Assembly (NCBI GenBank): GCA_965228875.1
Contig: OZ245843.1
Location: forward strand, 3,578,616-3,642,615
Direction: 5' to 3'
Origin: Thalassobaculaceae bacterium
GTDB lineage: Bacteria; Pseudomonadota; Alphaproteobacteria; Thalassobaculales; Thalassobaculaceae
Length of the DNA stretch: 64,000 nt
Position 1 is the stretch's first letter. Every line of letters starts with the position of its first letter. The position numbers were made by a program, and so were the translations under genes. Below are positions 13,930-55,569 of this stretch, piece after piece. Below the pieces are notes generated by a model. That model ran no database searches. It saw nothing but the letters and a program-made list of their open reading frames with translations, and was not told where the DNA came from.

Positions 13930-15819
13930 ATGGCCCTCGCCCTTCCGGATCCCGACGATACCGCTTCCCCCGGCCCCGCTGCCGGCCCCGTCTCCGGCCG
14001 CTGCCCGGAGACGGCGCTGCATGACATCTTCGGCTTCGCCGAGTTCCGCCCCGGCCAGCGGGCGGTCATCGACAGCATTCTCGCCGGCAAGGACACGGTC
14101 GCAGTCATGCCGACAGGCGCCGGAAAGTCGCTCTGCTTTCAGCTCCCGGCGGTGATGGACGGCGGCCTGACCGTCGTCGTCTCGCCGCTGATCGCGCTGA
14201 TGGAGGACCAGGTCCGTTCGCTGCGCCTGCAGGGCGTGTGCGCCGCCGCCATGCACTCCGGCCAGCCGCCGGGCGCCAACGCCGACACCTGGCGCCTCGC
14301 GCGCTCCGGCGAGCTGCGCCTGCTCTACATCGCGCCGGAGCGGCTCGCCCTGGACGGCATTCTCGACGACCTGTCCGACATCGGCGTCACCCGTCTGGTG
14401 GTCGACGAAGCCCATTGCATCAGCCAGTGGGGCCACGCCTTCCGGCCGGACTACCTGACGCTCGCCCGCGTGCGCGAGAGGCTCGGGGTTCCGACCGCCG
14501 CCTTCACCGCCACCGCCGACGCCGCCACCCGCCGCGACATCGTCGACCGGCTGTGCGGCAGCCAGGGGGAGAGCGGCGAGGCCGAGGTCTTCGTCTTCGG
14601 ATTCGACCGGCCGAACCTGGACCTTCGGATCGCCGAGAAGCGCAGCCCGGCCAAGCAGCTCCTCGCCTTCCTGGAGGAGCGCCGGGGCGAGAGCGGCATC
14701 GTCTACTGCCTGTCGCGCCGCGCGGTCGAGGAGACGGCGGCCAGCCTGAACCGCCACGGCATCGCCGCGGTGCCCTACCACGCCGGGCTCGACCCGGAGG
14801 TGCGGTCGGCCAATCAGGACCGGTTCGTGACCGAGGACGGGCTGGTCGTCTGCGCCACGATCGCCTTCGGCATGGGCATCGACAAGCCGGATGTCCGCTT
14901 CGTCTTCCACACCGACGTACCCGGCTCGGTCGAGGCCTACTACCAGGAGATCGGCCGCGCCGGCCGCGACGGGCTGCCGGCGACGGTGCAGATGCTGTAC
15001 GGCCTCGCCGACATCGCCCAGCGCCGCCGCTTCATCGACGAAAGCGGGGCGAGCGAAGATCAGCGACGGATCGAACATCGGCGTCTGAACACCCTGCTCG
15101 GCATCTGCGAGACCGCCGGCTGCCGCCGCCAGGCCCTGCTCGCCGCCCTCGGAGAGTCGCTGGCCGAGCCGTGCGGCAACTGCGACACCTGCCGCGAGCC
15201 GCCGGAGACCCTGGACGGGCTGATCCCGGCGCAGAAGGTGCTCTCGGCCATCCTGCGCACCGGCCAGCGGTTCGGCGCCGGCCACGTCGTCGATGTCCTG
15301 CTCGGCGGCAAGACCGAGGCTGTGCAGCGCCACGGCCACGACGCGCTGCCGACATTCGGCGTCGGCACCGAGTTCGACCGTAACGGCTGGCGCTCGGTGA
15401 TCCGCCAGCTCGTCGCCTCCGGGATCGTCGCCATCGACACCGCCGGTTATGGCGGCCTCACCGTGGGCGAGGCCGGGCGGGCGGTGCTGAAAGGCGAGGT
15501 GGCGGTGACCCTGCGCCGCGACACCGGCAGGCCGGCCAAGGCCGGACGCGGCCGCGAGACCGTGGCGGCCAGCGTCTCGCCGGAGAATGCGGATCTGCTG
15601 CGGGCGCTGAAGGAGGAGCGGCGCACCATCGCCCGTGAGCTGTCCCTGCCGGCCTACACGGTGCTGCACGACCGCTCGCTGATCGAGCTGGCCGAGCGCC
15701 GACCGGCCTCGCTCGACGCGTTCGCCGGCATCCACGGCGTCGGTCAGGCCAAGCTGGAGAAGTTCGGCGAGAGATTCCTCGCCGTGATCCGGAACGCCCC
15801 CGTAGACTCGGGGGCATGA
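13930..15819 (+). CDS. recQ: ATP-dependent DNA helicase RecQ
   Basis: MPTGAGKS, DEAHCISQWGH, FGMGIDKPDVR, QEIGRAGRDG, RQC Cys cluster, HRDC; alternative start 13894. Confidence 0.95.
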   Translation: MALALPDPDDTASPGPAAGPVSGRCPETALHDIFGFAEFRPGQRAVIDSILAGKDTVAVMPTGAGKSLCFQLPAVMDGGLTVVVSPLIALMEDQVRSLRLQGVCAAAMHSGQPPGANADTWRLARSGELRLLYIAPERLALDGILDDLSDIGVTRLVVDEAHCISQWGHAFRPDYLTLARVRERLGVPTAAFTATADAATRRDIVDRLCGSQGESGEAEVFVFGFDRPNLDLRIAEKRSPAKQLLAFLEERRGESGIVYCLSRRAVEETAASLNRHGIAAVPYHAGLDPEVRSANQDRFVTEDGLVVCATIAFGMGIDKPDVRFVFHTDVPGSVEAYYQEIGRAGRDGLPATVQMLYGLADIAQRRRFIDESGASEDQRRIEHRRLNTLLGICETAGCRRQALLAALGESLAEPCGNCDTCREPPETLDGLIPAQKVLSAILRTGQRFGAGHVVDVLLGGKTEAVQRHGHDALPTFGVGTEFDRNGWRSVIRQLVASGIVAIDTAGYGGLTVGEAGRAVLKGEVAVTLRRDTGRPAKAGRGRETVAASVSPENADLLRALKEERRTIARELSLPAYTVLHDRSLIELAERRPASLDAFAGIHGVGQAKLEKFGERFLAVIRNAPVDSGA

Positions 15820-17531
15820 CACCCGCCCGCAGACAGGCCCCCTTCGCTTCCCCCGATATCGAGCTGCGCCGGGATCCGGACGGAACCATCCACCTGCGTT
15901 CTCGCGTCGACGCCGCACCGCATCCCGACACCCTCATCGACCATCTCGACCGTTGGGCCGTCGAGACGCCGGACCGCAGTCTGGTCGCCGAACGGTCGGG
16001 AGACGGTTGGCGCGCGGTCGGTTTCGCCGAGGCGGCGGAGAAGAGTCGAGGCATCGCCGCCGCCCTGCTCGACCGCCGCGTGCCGTCGGTCATGGTGCTG
16101 TCGGAGAACTCGGTCGACCAGGCGCTGCTGATGCTCGGAGCGTTCCGGGCCGGGGTGCCGTTCTGCCCGGTCTCGTCCGCCTACGCGCTGCTGTCGCGGG
16201 ATTTCGACAAGCTGCGGCGGATCGTTGGAACCGTGCGCCCCGGTCTGGTCCTGGCGGAGGGGCTCGAACGCTTCGAACGGGCGCGGGCGGCGGTCGATTT
16301 CGGCGGAGCCGAATTCGTCGCCAACATAAACAACCTCGCCGTCACCAGGCACGCCACGCTGCCGCGGGTCGACACCGACGCGACGGCCAAGATCCTGTTC
16401 ACCTCCGGCTCGACCGGGGTGCCGAAGGGGGTGATCAACACCCACCGGATGCTGGCGTCTAATCAGGCCGCCCTCGGTCAGGTCTGGACCTGCCTGCGGG
16501 ACCGTCCGCCGGTCATGCTCGACTGGCTGCCCTGGAGCCACACCTTCGGCGGCAACCAGAACCTCGGCCTCGCGATCAGCTACGGCGGGACCCTCCTAAT
16601 CGACGACGGCCGACCGACACCGGACCGGATCGCCCGCACGGTGGAGAATCTGGGCCACGTCGCGCCGACCCTGCACTTCAACGTGCCGCGCGGCCTCGAC
16701 ATGCTACTGCCCTACCTGGAAGCGGATCCGGCGCTGCGGGACCGGTTCTTCGCCGAGCTCGAGTTCGTATTCTACGCCGGCGCCACCCTGCCGCAGTCGC
16801 TATGGCAACGGGTGGAGGCGCTTGGCCTGGCGGCAACCGGCGAACTGCCGATCCTCACCACCTGCTACGGTACGACGGAGACGGCGCCGATGGCGCTCGC
16901 CGCCCATCTGCCGCTGGAGCGCGCCGGCGTGGTCGGGGTACCGGTCCCGGGGGTCGAGGCCAAGCTGGTGCCGACCGGCGACAAGCTGCAGATCGCGCTC
17001 CGCGGTCCGAACATCACGCCAGGCTACGCCGGGCGCGAGGATCTGACCGTCGATGCCTTCGATGCCGACGGCTACTTCGTCAGCGGCGACGCGGTCCGCC
17101 TGGCCGATCCGGACGACCCCAATGCCGGCATCGTGTTCGACGGGCGCATCGCCGAGGACTTCAAGCTGTCGACCGGCACCTGGGTCAGCGTCGGCGCCCT
17201 GCGGGTGGCGGTGATCGCCGCCTGCGGCAAGGCGGTGAGCGATGTCGTCATCGCCGGCCTTGACCGCGACGCGATCGGCCTGCTGATCTTCGCCAATGCC
17301 GGCGCGACGGCGGAAGCCATCCGTGACGGCCTCGCCCGCCACAATGCCGCCAATCCCGGCTCCAGCACGCGCATCGCCCGCGCCCTGATCCTGGACACGC
17401 CGCCGGATGTGGATTCCGGCGAGATCACCGACAAGGGATATCTCAACCAGCGCCGCATCCTGGAGCGCCGGGCGGACCGGGTGGCGCAACTCTTCGCGGA
17501 GCCGGCGGGGCCGGGCGTGATCGTGCCCTGA
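15816..17531 (+). CDS. Feruloyl-CoA synthetase-like AMP-binding acyl-CoA ligase
   Basis: FTSGSTGVPKG, DWLPWSHTFGG, YGTTET, GEITDKGYLNQ. Confidence 0.85.
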   Translation: MTPARRQAPFASPDIELRRDPDGTIHLRSRVDAAPHPDTLIDHLDRWAVETPDRSLVAERSGDGWRAVGFAEAAEKSRGIAAALLDRRVPSVMVLSENSVDQALLMLGAFRAGVPFCPVSSAYALLSRDFDKLRRIVGTVRPGLVLAEGLERFERARAAVDFGGAEFVANINNLAVTRHATLPRVDTDATAKILFTSGSTGVPKGVINTHRMLASNQAALGQVWTCLRDRPPVMLDWLPWSHTFGGNQNLGLAISYGGTLLIDDGRPTPDRIARTVENLGHVAPTLHFNVPRGLDMLLPYLEADPALRDRFFAELEFVFYAGATLPQSLWQRVEALGLAATGELPILTTCYGTTETAPMALAAHLPLERAGVVGVPVPGVEAKLVPTGDKLQIALRGPNITPGYAGREDLTVDAFDADGYFVSGDAVRLADPDDPNAGIVFDGRIAEDFKLSTGTWVSVGALRVAVIAACGKAVSDVVIAGLDRDAIGLLIFANAGATAEAIRDGLARHNAANPGSSTRIARALILDTPPDVDSGEITDKGYLNQRRILERRADRVAQLFAEPAGPGVIVP

Positions 17532-17537
17532 CCCGCG

Positions 17538-18722
17538 TCAGAGTTCGTGGACCATGGGGGACTGGTCGTAGAAGTCGGGATTCGAGCCGACATAGCTCTT
17601 GAACGACCCGGACGAGTCGTGCCCGATCATCGCCACGGAGTGGGTCTCGACGGGATCCCCGGCACCGGCCCGGCCGTAGACCGGAACGTCGCGCTTGCCC
17701 GGGTGAAGCCCCATGGAGTCGGCCGTCGCGCGCCACGCGTCATGGATCTCGCGGACCTTATCCGGTCCCAGCAGGGCGACATGCTGGTCGCTGACGTCCA
17801 GGTAGTTGCCAACAACCTCGTTCGGCAGACCGTCGCTCAGCACGTAGTTCTGCGGCGCCTGGAAGGCCGGGCGGAACACGTCGGCCTCGAAATCCGCCTT
17901 GTACCGTCCTCTGCGCCAATCGGTGATGCGCCCCGACCCGTCCCCGGCAACATCGTAGAGACCGTCGAAGATCTCGCCGAACCGGTCCGCCGCGCCGCCC
18001 TGGCCGATCGATCGCAACATGGTCTGGTAGTTGTTCTTCGCGGCGACCCGGTTCTCGTCCGGCATTCCCGGCCGCGACAGGATCATGTGACCGAACATGT
18101 AGAGATCGGACGCCGGCACCAGATGGCGCAGATGCAGTTCGCCGCGCCTGAACCTCTCCTCGCCGGCGCCGACGAATTTGACCGCGTTGACAACATGCTC
18201 CGGCGTGATCGCCACGCCCTCGTACTCAGCCTGGGTTCCCGCCAGGACCGCCACGAGCGTCTCGTCCGAGATGTTCGGCCGGCGATAATGCGCCTTCTTG
18301 GTCCGCGCGTAGCTCTCGGCGCTCGCCGCCCGTTGGATGACGGGCGAGACCGGCGCAGAGCCGGCAGCGGGGCGGGCGGGGTGCGGCGTTCTGGCCAGTC
18401 CGGCGACCGGCCGTCCGGCGGCACGCTGTTCGTGCGCCAGCGGCGCCCGACCGGCGGAGGGGTCCATCGGCCCGGGCTTCGCTTGCGCCGCCGCACCCGG
18501 TCGCACCGCTCGGGCCTCGTGCGGCAACAGTGGGCGCGACGACCCGACCGGCATGGATGCCCACATGGGCTGGTACGCCGCGCCGCGCTCGCCGGCCTGC
18601 CGCCGCTCGTGGGGCAGCAGCGGGCGCGTCGCGTCCACCGGCCCGGCGGTTCTCGGCTGCGCCGCCTGCACCCCGCCGACCTGGCGGAGTTCGTGCGGCA
18701 ACAACGCCCGTCGCGGCGTCAC
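17538..18722 (-). CDS. Hypothetical protein: four N-terminal LLPHE repeats, PVIQR motif, then a ~265-aa unknown (possibly toxin) domain
   Basis: GTG start overlapping the upstream TGA (GTGA); repeats RALLPHELR, RPLLPHERR, RPLLPHEAR, RAPLAHEQR; globular-looking C-terminal region. Confidence 0.75.
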   Translation of the reverse strand: MTPRRALLPHELRQVGGVQAAQPRTAGPVDATRPLLPHERRQAGERGAAYQPMWASMPVGSSRPLLPHEARAVRPGAAAQAKPGPMDPSAGRAPLAHEQRAAGRPVAGLARTPHPARPAAGSAPVSPVIQRAASAESYARTKKAHYRRPNISDETLVAVLAGTQAEYEGVAITPEHVVNAVKFVGAGEERFRRGELHLRHLVPASDLYMFGHMILSRPGMPDENRVAAKNNYQTMLRSIGQGGAADRFGEIFDGLYDVAGDGSGRITDWRRGRYKADFEADVFRPAFQAPQNYVLSDGLPNEVVGNYLDVSDQHVALLGPDKVREIHDAWRATADSMGLHPGKRDVPVYGRAGAGDPVETHSVAMIGHDSSGSFKSYVGSNPDFYDQSPMVHEL

Positions 18723-19623
18723 CCGACCGGTCCCCGCCCCCGGACCACGCGGTGCATGTCGCCCGGCGACACGACGCCGGCGCGCGGCCCGACCTCGATC
18801 CCGGCGGAGCGCATGACGTCGCGGGCAAACACGCCGCAATCGGCGCCGGTCAGGCTGAACATCGGCGGTCGGCTTCGATATTCCGCGATCTTCGCCATCG
18901 CACTGTGCGCCTGGACCGCGTCGACCTCGAAGCTGCGGGTACGGACGCCGGGCTTGGCGAAGGCGCCGGCGTCGCTGTGGACCTGGCCGGGCACGCCCCG
19001 GCGCAGCACGCCGACGTCGCGGCGCAGATCGATCCGCTCTCGGCCCGCCGGCGAGAAGCCGACGGTATGCGCCTGGCCGCCCGGCCCCTGGATCGACACG
19101 AAACTGTGCCCCGCCGCCTCCTGCGGCAGGCCGGGCGCGGTGTGCATGTAGGTGCCGACGGTGATGGTGTATCCGCCTACCGCGGGCTGCACCGCAACGG
19201 CCCGGCCGGCGGGCTGGGCCGCGGAAGCAGGAATGGCGGGTTGCACCGCCGGCGCGCGGGTGGCGGGGACCGCCGAGCCGCCGATCGGGGCGGCCGGCCG
19301 ATCGCGACCGTGCGCCCGGACCTCATGAGCCAGCAGCGGCCGGCCCGGCGGCGTGCTGCGCCCCGCCGGCATCCGGTCTCAGCCGGTGTGAGGCGGCACG
19401 CCCGGCGCCGGCACGCCGGTGGTCATGCGCTGCTCGTGCGGCAGCATGCCGCGACCGCCGTTCGGTGCTTCCGGCGCGATGCCGAAGGGCTGAACCGCCA
19501 GGGGCCGGAAACCGCGCGCTGCTCGTGCGGCAGCATCGCCCGAGGCGCCTGAGCGCCAGCGCCGGCCGCCTGGGGCTGGGCCGCGCCACCGAGCTGTCGC
19601 ATCTCGTGAGGCAGCAGAGCCCT
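18423..19623 (-). repeat. Eight copies of a coding R-x-[LMP]-L-[PA]-H-E-x-R motif spread over three ORFs
   Basis: Motifs at 19623-19597, 19542-19516, 19453-19427, 19342-19316, 18710-18684, 18626-18600, 18536-18510, 18449-18423. Confidence 0.85.
18719..19372 (-). CDS. LLAHE-leader protein with a C-terminal permuted papain-like (His...Cys) domain
   Basis: RPLLAHEVR and AVQP motifs, then GHSFV...TVGFSP...FSLTGADCGVFARDVMRSAGI. Confidence 0.72.
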   Translation of the reverse strand: MPAGRSTPPGRPLLAHEVRAHGRDRPAAPIGGSAVPATRAPAVQPAIPASAAQPAGRAVAVQPAVGGYTITVGTYMHTAPGLPQEAAGHSFVSIQGPGGQAHTVGFSPAGRERIDLRRDVGVLRRGVPGQVHSDAGAFAKPGVRTRSFEVDAVQAHSAMAKIAEYRSRPPMFSLTGADCGVFARDVMRSAGIEVGPRAGVVSPGDMHRVVRGRGPVG

Positions 19624-19638
19624 GGGAAAGTTGCTCAT
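19379..19638 (-). pseudogene. Repeat-only LLPHE peptide gene with an apparent single-base frameshift (pseudogene, recoding or sequencing error)
   Basis: GGAGG RBS + ATG at 19638; two motifs in one frame, and a third motif (RGMLPHEQR) plus AVQP in another frame ending at TGA 19379; motif 2-to-3 spacing is 89 nt. Confidence 0.6.
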
Positions 19639-19725
19639 CGCACCCTCCGATGAACATGTTGCGCTCCCCCATAGATAGCGCGAAACGCCGGCGGCGCCAA
19701 TCTTCCCTATTGCGGCGCGGGCCCT

Positions 19726-20724
19726 CTATCGCGGCGCGGGTCCGCAGAACCGGGACAGGGTCGCCGGCCCGGCCTCCTCGCCCGAGGGCAGGGGCGCCGA
19801 GGGATCGCGGGTCCAGGCGGCGATGTCGGCCGTCACCATGCCGCCGCCGAGATCGCGGAACAGCATGTGGTAGCCGTCAGCATAGAGCGCCACGCGCCGA
19901 CGCCCGGCCGGGACCCGGTCGAGCATGGCGCAGGTGGGGCGCCGCGGCACCAGTTCGTCGCGGCGCCCGTACAGCACCAGGACCGGGCGCGACAGCTCCG
20001 GCGCCACCCGCTGCGCGGCGTCCATCAGCGCGACGAGGCCGTGCACCGTGTCGACCCTCGGCCGCTTGATGAACAGCGGGTCGCGGGCGAGCGCACGCAG
20101 CATCTCCAGATTGTCGCTCGGCCGGATCCGCAGGCCGCGCGGCTCCAGCGGCAGCCATGGCACGCTGTGGGCCAGGATGTCGAGGCCGAGGGACTGGACC
20201 AGCGGCATCCAGTCCCGGCCCCACACCGCCGGGGCCGAGAGCACCGCGCCGGCAGCCTCGGTGTCGGTCTCGGCCAGGGCCAGCATGGCCACCGCCCCGC
20301 CCATGCTTTCGCCGAGCAGGTAGACCGGTACGCCGGGCGTGTCGGCGCGGACCAGCCGGACCAGCGCCTCGGCGTCGCGGGCCATCCGCGCATGGCCGTG
20401 CCAGTCTCCCGCGCCCGGCGCCTCGCCGAACCCACGCTGATCGGGGGCGAAGACCGTCGTTCCCGCCGCCGCCAGATCCGGGCCGAGCTCCGCGAAGGCA
20501 TTGGAATAGTCACCGAAACCGTGCAGAGCGACCACGGCGGCCAAGGGCCTGCCCGTCGCCCGCCAGATCCGCAGCGGCAGACGGACCCCGTCATCCATCC
20601 GCGCGAACGGCCGCAGCTCCAGGCCGGGCGCACCGGGGTCGTCGCCGGGCGGGGCGATCTGTGGCGCGCAGGCGGCCAGCAGGGCGAGAGCGAAAAGGGC
20701 GAGGAAGCGGCGCGCCGCCGTCAT
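19726..20724 (-). CDS. Lipoprotein alpha/beta hydrolase (lysophospholipase/monoglyceride lipase family)
   Basis: Lipobox LLAAC, LHGFGDY, DQRGFG, GESMGG nucleophile, GYHML. Confidence 0.9.
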   Translation of the reverse strand: MTAARRFLALFALALLAACAPQIAPPGDDPGAPGLELRPFARMDDGVRLPLRIWRATGRPLAAVVALHGFGDYSNAFAELGPDLAAAGTTVFAPDQRGFGEAPGAGDWHGHARMARDAEALVRLVRADTPGVPVYLLGESMGGAVAMLALAETDTEAAGAVLSAPAVWGRDWMPLVQSLGLDILAHSVPWLPLEPRGLRIRPSDNLEMLRALARDPLFIKRPRVDTVHGLVALMDAAQRVAPELSRPVLVLYGRRDELVPRRPTCAMLDRVPAGRRRVALYADGYHMLFRDLGGGMVTADIAAWTRDPSAPLPSGEEAGPATLSRFCGPAPR

Positions 20725-20821
20725 GGACACATCCAGCGTGAGCGAATCCTTGCGGGGACAGCGGTCGTGCGTATCATCCGTCGGTGATGCGAACAAGCGC
20801 GACAGCGCGGAGGACCGGGCC

Positions 20822-21016
20822 ATGACAACGGCGAACACCGATGCGTTCGAGACGATCGAAGTGACGGGACACCGGGTCGCGTGCGACGGCGGCGGCGGCC
20901 CGCTCGGCCACCCCAGGGTCTTCCTCGAGATCCCCGAGGACGAGCACAAGGTGGTGTGTCCCTACTGCTCGCGGACCTACGTGATGGTCGACGCCGCGGA
21001 CGAGCACGCCGCCTGA
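20822..21016 (+). CDS. zf-CHCC zinc-finger protein
   Basis: VACDGGGGPLGHPRVFL...CPYC. Confidence 0.88.
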   Translation: MTTANTDAFETIEVTGHRVACDGGGGPLGHPRVFLEIPEDEHKVVCPYCSRTYVMVDAADEHAA

Positions 21017-48830: not shown

Positions 48831-52490
<3,660 letters not shown>

Positions 52491-52494
<4 letters not shown>

Positions 52495-53612
52495 ACCCGC
52501 ATCGGCATCAGGACGTAGAGCGCGCCGTCGTCGGCCTCGTCGGTGACGATGGTGGGCGAGGCGGCGTCGGCCATCTGGAAGACGGCCTTGCCGCTGTCGT
52601 CGACCTGATCGGCGATGTCCAGCAGGTAGCGGGAGTTGAAGCCGATCTCCATCGACGAGGCGCCGTACTCGACGTCCATCTCTTCCGTCGCCTGGGCGTT
52701 GTCCGGGCTGTTCGCCGACAGGGTCAGGCTGCCGTTTCCGAGCGCGAGCTTCACCGAGCGCGACTTCTCGGTCGAGATCGTCGCGACCCGGTCGACCGCC
52801 TTCTTGAAGGCGCCGCAGTCGACCCGCATCACCTTGTCGTTGCCGGCCGGGATCACCCGCTCGTAATCGGGGAAGGTGCCGTCGATCAGCTTGGTGGTCA
52901 GCACCGTGTCGGCGAAGGCGAAACGCAGCTTGTTCTCGCTCAGGCCGATCTGCACGTCGCCGTCGGTCTCGTCGATCAGCTTGCGGATCTCGTTCACCGC
53001 CTTGCGCGGCACGATCACCGACGGCATGCCCGCCGCCCCTTCCGGCAGCGGCATCTGCACCCGGGCGAGCCGGTGACCGTCGGTGGCGACCGCCCGCAGA
53101 ACCGCCATCCCGTTGGCCTGGGTCTCGTGCAGGTAGATGCCGTTGAGGTAGTACCGCGTCTCCTCGGTGGAGATGGCGAAGCGGGTGCGGTCGATGAGCG
53201 TCTTAGCGTCGGCGGCCGACAGCACGAAGTTGGTCGTCAGCTCGTCGCCGGACAGCGCCGGAAATTCCTCCACCGGCAGGGTCGGCAGCGAGAAGTTGGA
53301 TCGCCCCGCCCGGATCGCCATGCGCCCGCTGTCGCCGGCGACGTTGAGGCCGACCTCGGCGCCGTCGGGCAGCTTGCGGGCGATCTCGTAGAGCGTCAGC
53401 GCCGGCACCGTCGCCGATCCCGCCTGCTCGACCGAGCAGACCACGCTTTCCACCACGTCCATGTCCATGTCGGTCGCGGTCATGGACACCATGCCGTCCG
53501 CGGCCTTCAGGAGCACGTTCGCCAGGATCGGGATCGTGTTGCGGCGCTCGACGACGCTCTGAACATGGGCCAGCGGCTTCAGAAGGGCCGCCCGGTCAAT
53601 GGTGATCTTCAT
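52491..53612 (-). CDS. dnaN: DNA polymerase III beta clamp
   Basis: VERRNTIPIL, ETRYYLNG, ATDGHRL, FPDYERVIP, VLMPMRV. Confidence 0.98.
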
Positions 53613-53805
53613 GGGCTCGCTCGAACTGGAATGGCGCCTGTCGGACCGGCGTATCGCGGAAGCCGGCACCGCTCAGACCGACGGCATCCGACCGCCCGCG
53701 ACCCGGCGAATCGAAAGTCCGATTTTATAGCACGAAACGCTTGTGCACAGGGAGTTTTTCGCCGTCCGGCGCGGCGGGATCCGCCGGCGCCGGACGGTAG
53801 GCCGA

Positions 53806-55248
53806 TCACCCCTCCAGCATGCGCCGGAGCAGGTCCACGTCGGCGTCGAAATGCCGGTCCGTGGCCCGCAGTTCGTCGATCTTCTTCACGGCGTGCATGA
53901 CCGTCGTGTGGTCGCGCCCGCCGAACTTGCGGCCGATCTCCGGCAGCGACCGGTGGGTCAGCTGCTTGGACAGGTACATGGCAATCTGCCGCGGACGGGC
54001 GATGGCGCGCGCCCGGCGGGCCGAATACATGTCCGAGACCCGGATGTTGTAGTGCGACGCGACCTGCCGCTGGATCTCCTCGATCGTCACCCGGCGGTCG
54101 TTGGCCTTGAGAATATCGGCCAGAACCTCCTGCACCATCTCCAGCGTGATCGAGCGGCCGACCAGGGTGGAATGGGCCACCACCCGGTTCAGCGCGCCCT
54201 CCAGCTCGCGCACGTTGGAGCTGATCTTGTGCGACAGGAACTCCATGACCTTCGGCGGGATCTCGGCCTCCACCCGCTCGACCTTCGACTGCAGGATGCC
54301 CAGGCGAAGCTCGTAGTCGGTCGGATGGATATCGGCCACCAGCCCCCAGCCCAGGCGCGAGCGCAGCCGCTCCTCCATGCCGTCGAGGTTGGTCGGACTC
54401 TTGTCGGCGGAGATCACCACCTGGCGGTTGTTGTCCACCAGGGCGTTGAAGGTGTGGAAGAACTCCTCCTGGGTGCTGTCCTTGCCGCTGATGAACTGGA
54501 CGTCGTCGATCATCAGGACGTCGACCGAGCGGAACAGCTCCTTGAACGCGACGGTATCGCGATACCGCAGCGCCCGGATGAACTGGTACATGAACTTCTC
54601 GGCCGAGAGATACAGCACCCGGCGCTGCGGGTGGTTGCGCCGGATCTCCCAGGCGATCGCATGCATCAGGTGGGTCTTGCCGAGCCCGACCCCGCCGTAG
54701 AGGAACAGCGGATTGAACGACACGGTGTCGCTCTCCGCCAGCCGCCGCGCGGCGGCGAAGGCCAGTTCATTGGGCTTGCCGACCACGAAGTTCTCGAAGG
54801 TGAAGCGGGCGTCCAGCGGCGCCGACACCGAATCCAGGTCGCTCGCCTGCTCCCCGCCGACCGTCACCTCCGGCGCCGACATCGTCCTCGCACCGGCGGT
54901 GCCGGGACCAGCCGGGCGGTCTGCATGATCCGTCTGAAGCGACGCCTCCTGGCGCCCGGTGGCCTGATACTGCGCCTCCTGGCGCCCGGTGGCGATCACC
55001 TCCACCGCGCTGACGGCCGGGTCCTCGCCCTGCCACAGACCGCGCAGTCGGTCACCGTACTGGGTGACGACGCGGTCGCGCTCGAACTTCGACGGTATGG
55101 CCAGATAGACGGTCTGTCCGTCGCGGCGCGCCAGCGTCAGCGACCTGAGCCACCCGCGATACGCGGTCTCGCCGCATTCGGAGCGCAGACGCGTCTTGAC
55201 CCGCGCCCACTGCGCCGCCAGCACATCCCCATTTCCCGGCTCAGCCAT
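53806..55248 (-). CDS. dnaA: Chromosomal replication initiator DnaA
   Basis: FENFVVG, GGVGLGKTHL, IDDVQF, EEFFHTFN, GGRDHTTV. Confidence 0.98.
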   Translation of the reverse strand: MAEPGNGDVLAAQWARVKTRLRSECGETAYRGWLRSLTLARRDGQTVYLAIPSKFERDRVVTQYGDRLRGLWQGEDPAVSAVEVIATGRQEAQYQATGRQEASLQTDHADRPAGPGTAGARTMSAPEVTVGGEQASDLDSVSAPLDARFTFENFVVGKPNELAFAAARRLAESDTVSFNPLFLYGGVGLGKTHLMHAIAWEIRRNHPQRRVLYLSAEKFMYQFIRALRYRDTVAFKELFRSVDVLMIDDVQFISGKDSTQEEFFHTFNALVDNNRQVVISADKSPTNLDGMEERLRSRLGWGLVADIHPTDYELRLGILQSKVERVEAEIPPKVMEFLSHKISSNVRELEGALNRVVAHSTLVGRSITLEMVQEVLADILKANDRRVTIEEIQRQVASHYNIRVSDMYSARRARAIARPRQIAMYLSKQLTHRSLPEIGRKFGGRDHTTVMHAVKKIDELRATDRHFDADVDLLRRMLEG

Positions 55249-55569
55249 GACGACCCTCCCTAGCAAGGTCGCCGGTCAGCCCCCGACCGATTTTCAACAT
55301 GCCTGCGCGACTGTTCCAAGTTGACGATACATCCCCCGATAGGCTCCCCCAGCCGATCCGTGTCACCGTCCTTCCCTCGCATTGTCTTTGAACCCCGGAA
55401 ACCGGCGGTTCGTTGTGCCCCGAGAAATCGCGGCGGCATCGCAGCCACCCCCGCATTCGTGGATCCATCCGATCGGACAAACCGGGGCAGCCGCCGCGGC
55501 ACTTGCCGCCTCGCCGCCCGGCCCAAGTTCCCGGAAAATAAAACCGCAGAACCGGACCGACTTTAGCCG

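Follow-up and report, generated by a model that had tools for sequence, protein, structure and literature searches.

What links three adjacent genes whose products begin with copies of the same short motif and then continue into different domains? The question is raised by ORF A, ORF B and ORF C, three open reading frames (ORFs) that lie tightly packed and translationally coupled on the minus strand at 17538–19638 of a 64,000-nt stretch of a Thalassobaculaceae genome (contig OZ245843.1; the whole stretch is called the window below, and positions without further label are counted from its first letter). The motif, R-x-[LMP]-L-[PA]-H-E-x-R, is part of a leader found in eight genes of this genome. 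On balance, and with modest confidence, we regard these genes as a species-specific polymorphic effector family and their leader as an export-and-processing tag of a contractile-injection cargo system, which here would be a type VI secretion system (T6SS). A first-pass annotation of the window had also proposed a modular effector tag; the proposal was right in kind but named the wrong machine, an extracellular contractile injection system (eCIS), where the context of the related genes is that of a T6SS.

The window contains eight copies of the motif at 18360–19623 on the minus strand, distributed 3, 1 and 4 over ORFs A, B and C as originally described. The full repeat unit is about 29 aa long and consists of R-P-L-L-P-H-E-x-R, approximately 10 variable residues and a hydrophobic-Q-P motif. 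The reported spacings between copies (28, 30 and 29 aa in ORF C and 27 aa in ORF A) were recovered, as were the Gln motifs that follow most copies (AAQP, AYQP and AQAKP), and AVAVQPA in ORF B and SPVIQRA in ORF C close the low-complexity part of the protein. A six-frame translation of the genome, a single contig of 4.96 Mb, contains 25 matches to a strict form of the pattern, R-x-[LMPA]-L-[PA]-H-E-x-[RK], and 24 of these fall in 8 genes; the reversed genome has no match, and 0.79 matches would be expected from residue frequencies. Chance origin of the copies is thus excluded. In an alignment of 22 units R1, L4, H6, E7 and R9 are invariant in all 22, and a Q-P pair follows some 10 residues past the motif in about 13. 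Because each invariant residue is encoded by 2–6 synonymous codons (for example, CAC 17 and CAT 7, or GAG 16 and GAA 8), the motif is conserved at the protein level and not as a recent DNA duplication. Between the leaders of strain variants, changes are found at 1 of 90 core positions (R to K), at 4 of the 72 variable positions within the motif and at 24 of the 560 remaining leader positions, which is compatible with constraint and not significant alone. A literature search for the motif letters returned unrelated words only.

The leader appears to be disordered. In the AlphaFold model of ORF B it has pLDDT of about 45–55 and no secondary structure, with residues 1–62 below approximately 55 and a folded part starting at residue 67, in agreement with the boundary between leader and domain that had been drawn from the sequence. 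In line with the earlier statement that none of the three proteins has a Sec signal, no hydrophobic stretch is visible in the three N-termini when inspected by eye, without a signal-peptide predictor. A possible Tat signal in ORF C (TPRRALL) was likewise rejected by eye, as no hydrophobic region follows the RR and the other ORFs have no RR.

The three genes form a 2.2-kb cassette (17534..19741, minus strand) inserted between conserved housekeeping genes, with an AMP-binding-type ORF at 15816–17531 on one side and an ORF at 19726–20949 on the other. ORF A (19379..19638, minus strand) starts with the ATG at 19638, and a Shine–Dalgarno-like GGAGGG (19643..19648, minus strand) can be read 4 nt before this start codon. 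Its N-terminus is MSNFP-RALLPHEMR...AAQP...-RAMLPHEQR, and its three motif copies, RALLPHEMR, RAMLPHEQR and RGMLPHEQR, are located at 19597–19623, 19516–19542 and 19427–19453. All three copies that had been ascribed to ORF A are therefore present, but in this assembly the third lies in another frame: the listed ORF, 19423–19638, comprises two copies and then runs out of frame near 19500, and RGMLPHEQR and the stop codon at 19379–19381 follow in a different frame. In contigs from 4 of 4 public runs, which come from 4 studies and carry labels that include metagenome, seawater metagenome and coral metagenome, an additional base is present at 19500 and all remaining differences from the window (17400–19800) are substitutions, and the ORF A homologue P0004 is an intact protein of 85 aa with three copies. 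Because of the extra base in all four runs and the intact homologue, we conclude that the frame break is peculiar to this assembly and that ORF A is a real gene consisting of repeats only.

The ATG of ORF B (18719..19372, minus strand, 217 aa) lies 6 nt past the ORF A stop. The leader of ORF B, residues 1–66, contains the single copy RPLLAHEVR at 19316–19342, followed by AVQP, AAQP and AVAVQP, and precedes a toxin-like domain. The most likely start of ORF C (17538..18722, minus strand) is the GTG at 18722, overlapping the ORF B TGA as GTGA, and not the TTG at 18839. Read from this GTG it encodes 394 aa with the first motif at residue 5, and its leader of four copies (RALLPHELR, RPLLPHERR, RPLLPHEAR and RAPLAHEQR at 18684–18710, 18600–18626, 18510–18536 and 18423–18449) leads into a domain of about 260 aa. 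The third-position GC content (GC3) over the three ORFs is 0.80–0.89 (0.80 in the listed ORF A and 0.89 in ORF B), similar to that of the neighboring genes. There is no small downstream ORF between ORF B and ORF C, given their 4-nt overlap, or past ORF C, which is separated from the convergent gene by a 6-nt gap. A consensus scan of 17300–19950 for sigma-70 promoters and terminators found 0 of each, and among the public runs listed for the locus none is an RNA run.

The 24 motif copies located in genes belong to 8 genes at 5 loci of the genome: the window with 8 copies, locus L008 with 3, L009 with 3, L010 with 2, and L011 with two adjacent genes containing 6 and 2. Their architecture is uniform. 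The first copy is found 2–10 residues past the start codon in all 8 genes, 12 of 14 in-frame spacings between copies are 27–31 residues, and each leader protein has 1–6 copies. The C-terminal domain, in contrast to this common leader, differs in each of the eight genes. The check for variable C-termini suggested with the original description was run on this genome and bears out its idea of a modular leader, with the same tag preceding unrelated C-terminal domains; a constant N-terminal region combined with variable C-termini, the hallmark of polymorphic toxins, is found in the eight genes. A toxin domain can be recognized in ORF B only. One other leader protein C-terminus has a weak Pribosyltran match (26.9 bits against a cut-off of 26.3), and another holds a region with HExxH; no PDB sequence was matched below E 0.5 by the 6-repeat paralogue or by the one bearing HExxH.

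Two of these C-termini have unusual features of their own. In the L010 leader protein (L010:9449-10675:+, G000 4521699-4522874) the motif [YL]R-x-[YFA]M-x-GTL-x-D-[LV]-[LF]-[ED] occurs three times, with copies about 45–60 residues apart in charged, low-complexity surroundings. In L011:10365-11468:- (G000 4937364-4938470) 23 glycines separate the leader from a C-terminal domain rich in Lys and Asn, with a composition that seems out of place in a genome of about 70% GC. The leader pair at L011 is flanked by PAS_5 (PF07310) genes of about 200 aa, L011:8047-8655:- and L011:11613-12215:-.

The leader has a narrow range. In this genome a profile of the repeat unit matches 23 times. The profile was also run on 40 relatives, of which 10 belong to the genus, 14 to the family and 16 to the class, and found nothing credible there; of three marginal matches, one of them in G034, two are short alternative frames over longer ORFs and were discarded. 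At E ≤ 0.001 the profile retrieved six of 1.84 billion representative proteins, each of them nearly identical to ORF A or to one of the other genes of this genome and hence a strain variant. One relative of ORF B, P0008 (189 aa, 85% identity), carries RPLLPHEVR followed by PIQPA. The profile search that the first-pass annotation had advised was thus carried out on the genome and on protein representatives, and it brought up this family and its strain variants and nothing further. Judging from these searches, the leader tag does not extend beyond one species and its near relatives.

The nature of the cargo is clearest for ORF B. Neither Pfam (E ≤ 1) nor NCBIfam assigns a family to ORF B or ORF C, and ORF A has only two chance-level Pfam matches below the cut-offs. 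Residues 62–217 of ORF B have homologues in 28 clusters with 49–99% identity, and the AlphaFold model built from the 28-cluster alignment has pLDDT of 88–97 over blocks of residues 71–190 and lower values at both ends, with strands and helices spanning residues 68–212. The top Foldseek match of this model is the T6SS effector TseH (6v98, E 0.012, probability 1.00), which is also found by VIA-align, an all-against-representatives structural search (6v98_A, Z 10.8, rmsd 3.8, 126 aligned residues); further VIA-align matches are DUF862/DeSI (Z 8.3), Aichivirus 2A (8.0), YiiX (7.8), PLAAT4 (7.4), CLN5 (7.3) and MARTX RID (5.7). ESM Atlas leads for the domain are TseH and IcsB_M. We take these structural matches to represent the permuted papain-like NlpC/P60 group, in which the His is located ahead of the Cys. 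His89 and Cys179 are invariant in the 28 sequences of the ORF B family and are presumably catalytic. The structure-prediction check proposed at the outset thus yields a TseH-like fold, and the ORF B domain (residues 67–212; 18737..19174, minus strand) is, on the model, a TseH-like permuted NlpC/P60 hydrolase and a credible injected toxin. Its likeness to TseH of Vibrio cholerae lies in the papain-like fold of the NlpC/P60 superfamily and in the conserved His and Cys of the ORF B family, whereas sequence identity between the two is 12% and Pfam TseH (PF25218) does not match ORF B.

ORF C is less informative. Homologue searches with its leader and its C-terminal domain found a single relative, the strain variant P0001, which is 96–98% identical. 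There is no usable match in Pfam, NCBIfam or PDB sequences (nothing below E 0.5), and a single-sequence AlphaFold model has a pLDDT of 39. Assignment as Endonuclea_NS_2 or NucA_NucB was rejected, the best ESM Atlas score of 0.78 being below noise level.

The homologues of the ORF B domain link it to DUF4157 and to the T6SS. PF13699 (DUF4157) is carried by 7 of the 28 clusters of homologues. When one genome of each species was scanned, 37 genomic homologue loci were found, in Azospirillum, Niveispirillum, Stellaceae, Magnetospirillum, Oxalobacteraceae, Thermoanaerobaculia and Polyangiaceae, and the start of the toxin domain could be located in 36 of them. By pattern match, DUF4157 is N-terminal in the same open frame as the toxin domain at 28 of the 36 loci, C-terminal to or just downstream of it at 4, and absent from the toxin frame at the remaining 4, one of which has a separate DUF4157 gene adjoining. 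The reverse order, with the TseH-like domain first and DUF4157 after it, is seen at L052, L056, L057 (Magnetospirillum) and L043. A hydrophobic-Q-[APRTKNMS] motif is present no more than 20 residues before the toxin domain at 33 of the 36 loci, and the other 3 have GQ[AP]K, so that the VQR-like motif named in the first-pass annotation as preceding DUF4157-linked toxin domains does recur; it corresponds to AVAVQPA of ORF B and SPVIQRA of ORF C. Pfam annotation of the neighbors of 12 sampled loci revealed core T6SS genes (TssC, Hcp, TssE/F/G/K, ClpV-like and VgrG) within about 6 kb at 11 of the 12, the twelfth having a DUF4280 PAAR-like gene only. A typical gene order is TssC, Hcp, TssE, TssF, TssG, DUF4157-toxin gene, ClpV-like ATPase, VgrG, MORN_2 and DUF4280 PAAR-like. 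The context of the homologues is thus that of a T6SS and not of an eCIS. This agrees with the accessible parts of earlier reports, in which DUF4157 is found on T6SS cargo and specialised effectors within T6SS clusters (PMC6899460) and an archaeal T6SS secretes DUF4157 proteins (PMC11566945).

Within some of these T6SS clusters, genes adjoining the DUF4157 genes have a second type of leader, PPPT[RK][FY]G or otherwise PPP-rich, as at L032:10550-11764 (Azospirillum sp. RU38E), L029:11026-11802 and L057:14588-15253. In some of these genes the PPPT-type motif is repeated; a [VI]Q[NPA][KR] motif always follows, and a different domain comes after that. These PPPT[RK][FY]G...Q[PA][KR] leaders, carried by genes without DUF4157 in the T6SS clusters of Azospirillum, Magnetospirillum and Stellaceae, resemble the leader described here in the succession of start-proximal motif, Q-motif and toxin domain, but differ from it in the motif itself, and the six-frame translation of the present genome has 0 matches to PP[PA]T[RK][FY]G. 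No paper describing the PPPT-type leader turned up, although no search was aimed at that leader.

The secretion machine had been predicted to lie outside the window, and the genome indeed contains three T6SS clusters elsewhere. Cluster 1 (~1.920–1.951 Mb) is canonical and includes ClpV, whereas clusters 2 (~4.430–4.447 Mb) and 3 (~4.523–4.547 Mb) have a fused TssB-TssC sheath gene. The fusions join VipA (TssB) and VipB (TssC) in single proteins of 643 aa in cluster 2 (G000:C1:4436230-4438161; L066:16231-18162:+) and 820 aa in cluster 3 (G000:C1:4533826-4536288; L068:1627-4089:-), and cluster 1 has an extra VipA+VipB protein of 593 aa (L065:209-1990:+) beside the normal pair. At its end cluster 3 encodes VgrG, DUF2169, a pentapeptide protein and, as the closing gene, a Tox-PAAR-like protein, whose stop codon is 8 nt from that of the convergent L010 leader gene. 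The window locus is not beside a T6SS cluster.

An eCIS would be the obvious alternative carrier, the leader then serving to load proteins into the extracellular particle. DUF4157 is among the core domains associated with eCIS, whose cargo proteins have disordered N-terminal loading sequences, as far as the accessible parts of PMC8213781 and bioRxiv 10.64898/2026.05.27.728243 go. The genome itself argues otherwise. The eCIS marker Pvc16_N has no match in this complete single-contig genome, while the same search was positive in 8 of 26 other genomes with toxins of the ORF B type; the remaining 18 of the 26 also had no match. The sole Phage_sheath_1 gene is located among genes for Mu transposase, Mu Gp27, terminase, capsid, tube, tape-measure and Mu baseplate proteins in a Mu-like prophage (G000:C1:2230104-2262021; L025, L026), and because of these Mu-like phage neighbors it is best assigned, by gene content, to the prophage and not to an eCIS. 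We therefore consider the eCIS route proposed at first to be largely refuted for this genome and very improbable as an explanation of the leader. With no sign of an eCIS in the markers searched, a contractile-injection route in this genome could only be one of the three T6SSs.

The genome has exactly one DUF4157 gene, which stands alone. Its product is 36–48% identical to the N-terminal module of the T6SS fusion proteins and has no toxin domain; in common with the fusions it has the M-x-ILQG-x-F start, HExxH and the EAEAD helix. The protein begins ILQGVF and carries VIQPR, VIQPK and AAQPK. A complex prediction for the DUF4157 domain with ORF C leader residues 1–62, made without controls, gave a score of 0.00. 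Judging from the gene arrangement, what is the architecture of one protein elsewhere appears here as unlinked genes.

Both the ORF A operon and the DUF4157 gene are lineage-specific small insertions between conserved genes. The flanks of the cassette are 2208 nt apart here and 11–263 nt apart in 7 of 10 same-genus genomes, and the DUF4157 gene is a 1.0-kb insertion whose flanks are 22–59 nt apart in 8 of the 10. Two of the same-genus genomes, G002 and G010, are about 1.5 Mb in size and 99% complete, compared with 4.6–5.6 Mb for the others, and in them the flanking housekeeping DNA is unmatched. The two insertions share a 27-nt upstream element, TTGGCGCCGCCGGCGTTTCGCGCTATC (19674..19700, minus strand), separated from the start codon of ORF A by 35 nt. 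It is identical at 24 of 27 positions to a stretch upstream of the DUF4157 gene (z 7.8), a score attained by 0 of 200 shuffles. The stretch is located 20–40 nt before the start codon in both insertions, and its 24-nt core, with up to 2 mismatches, occurs at only these two places in the genome. The element looks like TTGGCG-N16-CTATCT, presumably close to the alphaproteobacterial promoter consensus, and is a probable promoter or operator region. Because the insertions share this unique element, the sequences indicate that the ORF A operon and the DUF4157 gene have one origin or are controlled together. The connection to DUF4157 that the first-pass annotation had drawn is thereby strengthened, as it is the genome's only DUF4157 gene that shares the element with the operon. 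The 10 other genomes of the genus have neither the repeat (0) nor DUF4157 (0); a T6SS is found in 1 of the 10, of the cluster-1 type only, and T6SS clusters 2 and 3 have no match in any of them.

Is the repeat itself a form of DUF4157? There is a visible likeness between G-RPLLAHE in ORF B and G-QSLLGHE in the fusions, which MAFFT places together, and one paralogue copy reads ALAHELRHQQR. The zinc-binding DUF4157 signature is HExxHxxQ-E according to the accessible part of PMC3482391, a signature not matched by the repeat units with their H-E-x-R; a second His at position +4 is present in 0 of 8 copies in the window and in 1 of 24 in the genome (as HELRH). The loss of the second His that was noted originally therefore holds for all window copies. 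DUF4157 is further characterized by a fold of three strands and three helices; the ORF B leader is modeled with no secondary structure, and the ORF C model is of too low quality for such a comparison. Smith–Waterman alignments anchor on the LLGHE helix in 6 of 7 DUF4157 modules, and BLASTP homology from ORF B does not extend into the leader. With no Pfam match and no significance in the hhalign and shuffle comparisons described below, identification of the repeat as a DUF4157 domain was rejected as unproven, and derivation of the repeat from DUF4157 is a possibility suggested by the motif likeness. The Pfam result likewise gives no indication that the repeat belongs to a characterized family, which had been named as a way in which the effector reading might fail. 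The DUF4157 link is in this sense real, through the fusions of the ORF B domain, but indirect, the repeat itself not being DUF4157.

A separate similarity within ORF B concerns its first toxin strand, AVGGYTITVGTYMHTAPGL, which has a secondary BLASTP match to the DUF4157 segment AIGALAFTLGSDIHFAPGL (12 of 31 residues identical, E 0.002 in a single comparison). The match involves window positions 19064–19189 (ORF B residues 62–103) and the DUF4157 core of P0023 and P0029, and may be due to chance or be a trace of recombination.

Comparison with known systems places the leader between several of them. Like toxins with DUF4157 (the PVC-metallopeptidase, PF13699 or eCIS_core), the leader proteins have a constant N-terminal module, a low-complexity linker, variable toxin domains and a hydrophobic-Q boundary motif, and LL[PA]HE resembles LL[AG]HE of the active-site helix. 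Unlike those toxins, the leader proteins have neither the second His of HExxHxxQ-E (outside the single HELRH copy) nor its Q and its downstream Glu, a 9-residue motif is iterated up to six times in a disordered region, and DUF4157 is encoded apart at an unlinked site. MIX, FIX and RIX are N-terminal markers of T6SS cargo effectors; they are folded domains found across genera, and many of the genes that carry them are orphans. The present leader is similar in being a common N-terminal element on unrelated effectors, many of them distant from a T6SS cluster, but it is a short tandem-repeated linear motif of one species, and its dependence on the T6SS is presumptive. The loading sequences of eCIS cargo (PVC and AlgoCIS) share with it a disordered, system-specific, N-terminal character and are transferable in those systems, with DUF4157 optional; the accessible part of the source does not describe exact iteration of a motif in them, and here a T6SS would take the place of the eCIS.

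These results lead us to speculate on how the leader might work. It would occupy the place that is held in cis by DUF4157 in related effectors elsewhere, and DUF4157, encoded once and alone in this genome, would act in trans. The RPLLPHExR part might dock on a carrier, which could be Hcp, VgrG, PAAR, an adaptor or the DUF4157 protein, the Q-motif could serve as the site of cargo release, and ORF A might be a co-exported or competing leader peptide. Secretion, the T6SS route, the receptor and the cleavage are all steps that we infer. In its most specific form, in which the unit is a tag replacing cis DUF4157, has both a docking motif and a release site and cooperates with the trans DUF4157 in loading and freeing T6SS cargo, with ORF A as a dedicated co-loaded peptide, the scheme is a tentative conjecture of low probability. 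The literature on DUF4157 allows for such roles: in the accessible parts of the sources its role is called unknown, with loading, release or chaperoning suggested (PMC8213781; bioRxiv 10.64898/2026.05.27.728243; PMC11297309; PMC3482391), more specifically as a releasing peptidase (PMC3482391) or as a chaperone in cis or trans (PMC11297309), and in eCIS cargo a disordered, system-specific N-terminal region is needed for loading while DUF4157 is dispensable (bioRxiv 10.64898/2026.05.27.728243).

Several observations weigh against reading the family as T6SS effectors with an export tag. The T6SS context is that of the ORF B domain alone; ORF C has no relatives outside its strain variant, and for the five other C-termini the searches covered Pfam and PDB sequences. 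Four of the five leader loci lie among housekeeping genes, and the one that touches a T6SS cluster does so convergently and is not co-transcribed with it. Neither ORF B nor ORF C has an evident immunity-like gene beside it, although DUF4157-type toxins are described in the accessible part of PMC3482391 as often having no immunity genes and as occurring in several paralogues per genome. The co-occurrence of the leader, DUF4157 and the T6SS clusters concerns one lineage and hence one evolutionary event, and is no proof of function. Given its narrow range, the leader may be a young drifting sequence and not a tuned signal. Nor is its likeness to DUF4157 statistically supported: hhalign of the repeat against the DUF4157 fusions aligns 4 columns (LPHE with LGHE) at a probability of 0.85%, and Smith–Waterman comparisons with 7 DUF4157 modules give z from −0.2 to 3.1, with 6 to 280 of 500 shuffles scoring as well.

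Among the other explanations, the leader could be mainly a cleavable pro-region, whose hydrophobic-Q-P sites are cut by the trans DUF4157 metallopeptidase or another protease to release the cargo and peptides of about 29 aa, with export by some other means. This account overlaps the one we prefer, and by itself we hold it to be a possible but doubtful alternative. It draws on the Q-[APR]-[KR]-type motifs close to the toxin domain of the homologues (33 of 36 within 20 residues, the other 3 being GQ[AP]K), on the suggested peptidase role of DUF4157 (PMC3482391, accessible part), on the ILQGVF, VIQPR, VIQPK and AAQPK motifs of the DUF4157 protein itself, and on ORF A as a pure array of units. Cleavage by any DUF4157 protein is, against this, not reported in the accessible parts of PMC6899460 or PMC11297309, and the five invariant residues lie in the RPLLPHExR part whereas the Q-P pair is less conserved (about 13 of 22), so that the first part is expected to carry the key function. 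That four of the five loci are far from secretion genes, and that no Sec-type hydrophobic N-terminus is visible, might instead suggest another route (T1SS, T4SS, vesicles or lysis) with a receptor unrelated to the T6SS; the T6SS genes around the ORF B homologues at 11 of 12 sampled loci make this improbable. Slightly more improbable still is an intracellular role of the leader as a linear motif array for docking, degradation or regulation, or a RiPP-like precursor function of ORF A, which would fit a small repeats-only protein, disordered leaders and a range of one species. The neighbors of the other four loci are housekeeping or T6SS genes, the ORF B fold is used by an injected T6SS toxin and has relatives in T6SS clusters, and the presence of one tag on seven different enzyme-like C-termini is the pattern of polymorphic effectors. 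All three observations argue against an intracellular array.

If the leader proteins are T6SS cargo, the arrangement has wider implications, as DUF4157 marks hundreds of contractile-injection toxins. This genome splits the usual protein into a stand-alone DUF4157 gene and eight cargo genes with a short iterated tag, and a natural separation of this kind, into tag, toxin, and peptidase or chaperone, would allow a direct test of what DUF4157 does. It also suggests that lineage-specific linear motifs, besides folded marker domains, can tag T6SS-type cargo. ORF B adds a TseH-like toxin family within T6SS clusters of alphaproteobacterial, betaproteobacterial, myxobacterial and acidobacterial genomes. 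Should the proteins not be secreted, the finding shrinks to a species-specific repeat family. Elsewhere in the window, at 48831–55266, ORF sizes and order suggest a gyrB-recF-dnaN-dnaA origin region, as judged from ORF lengths and N-termini only.

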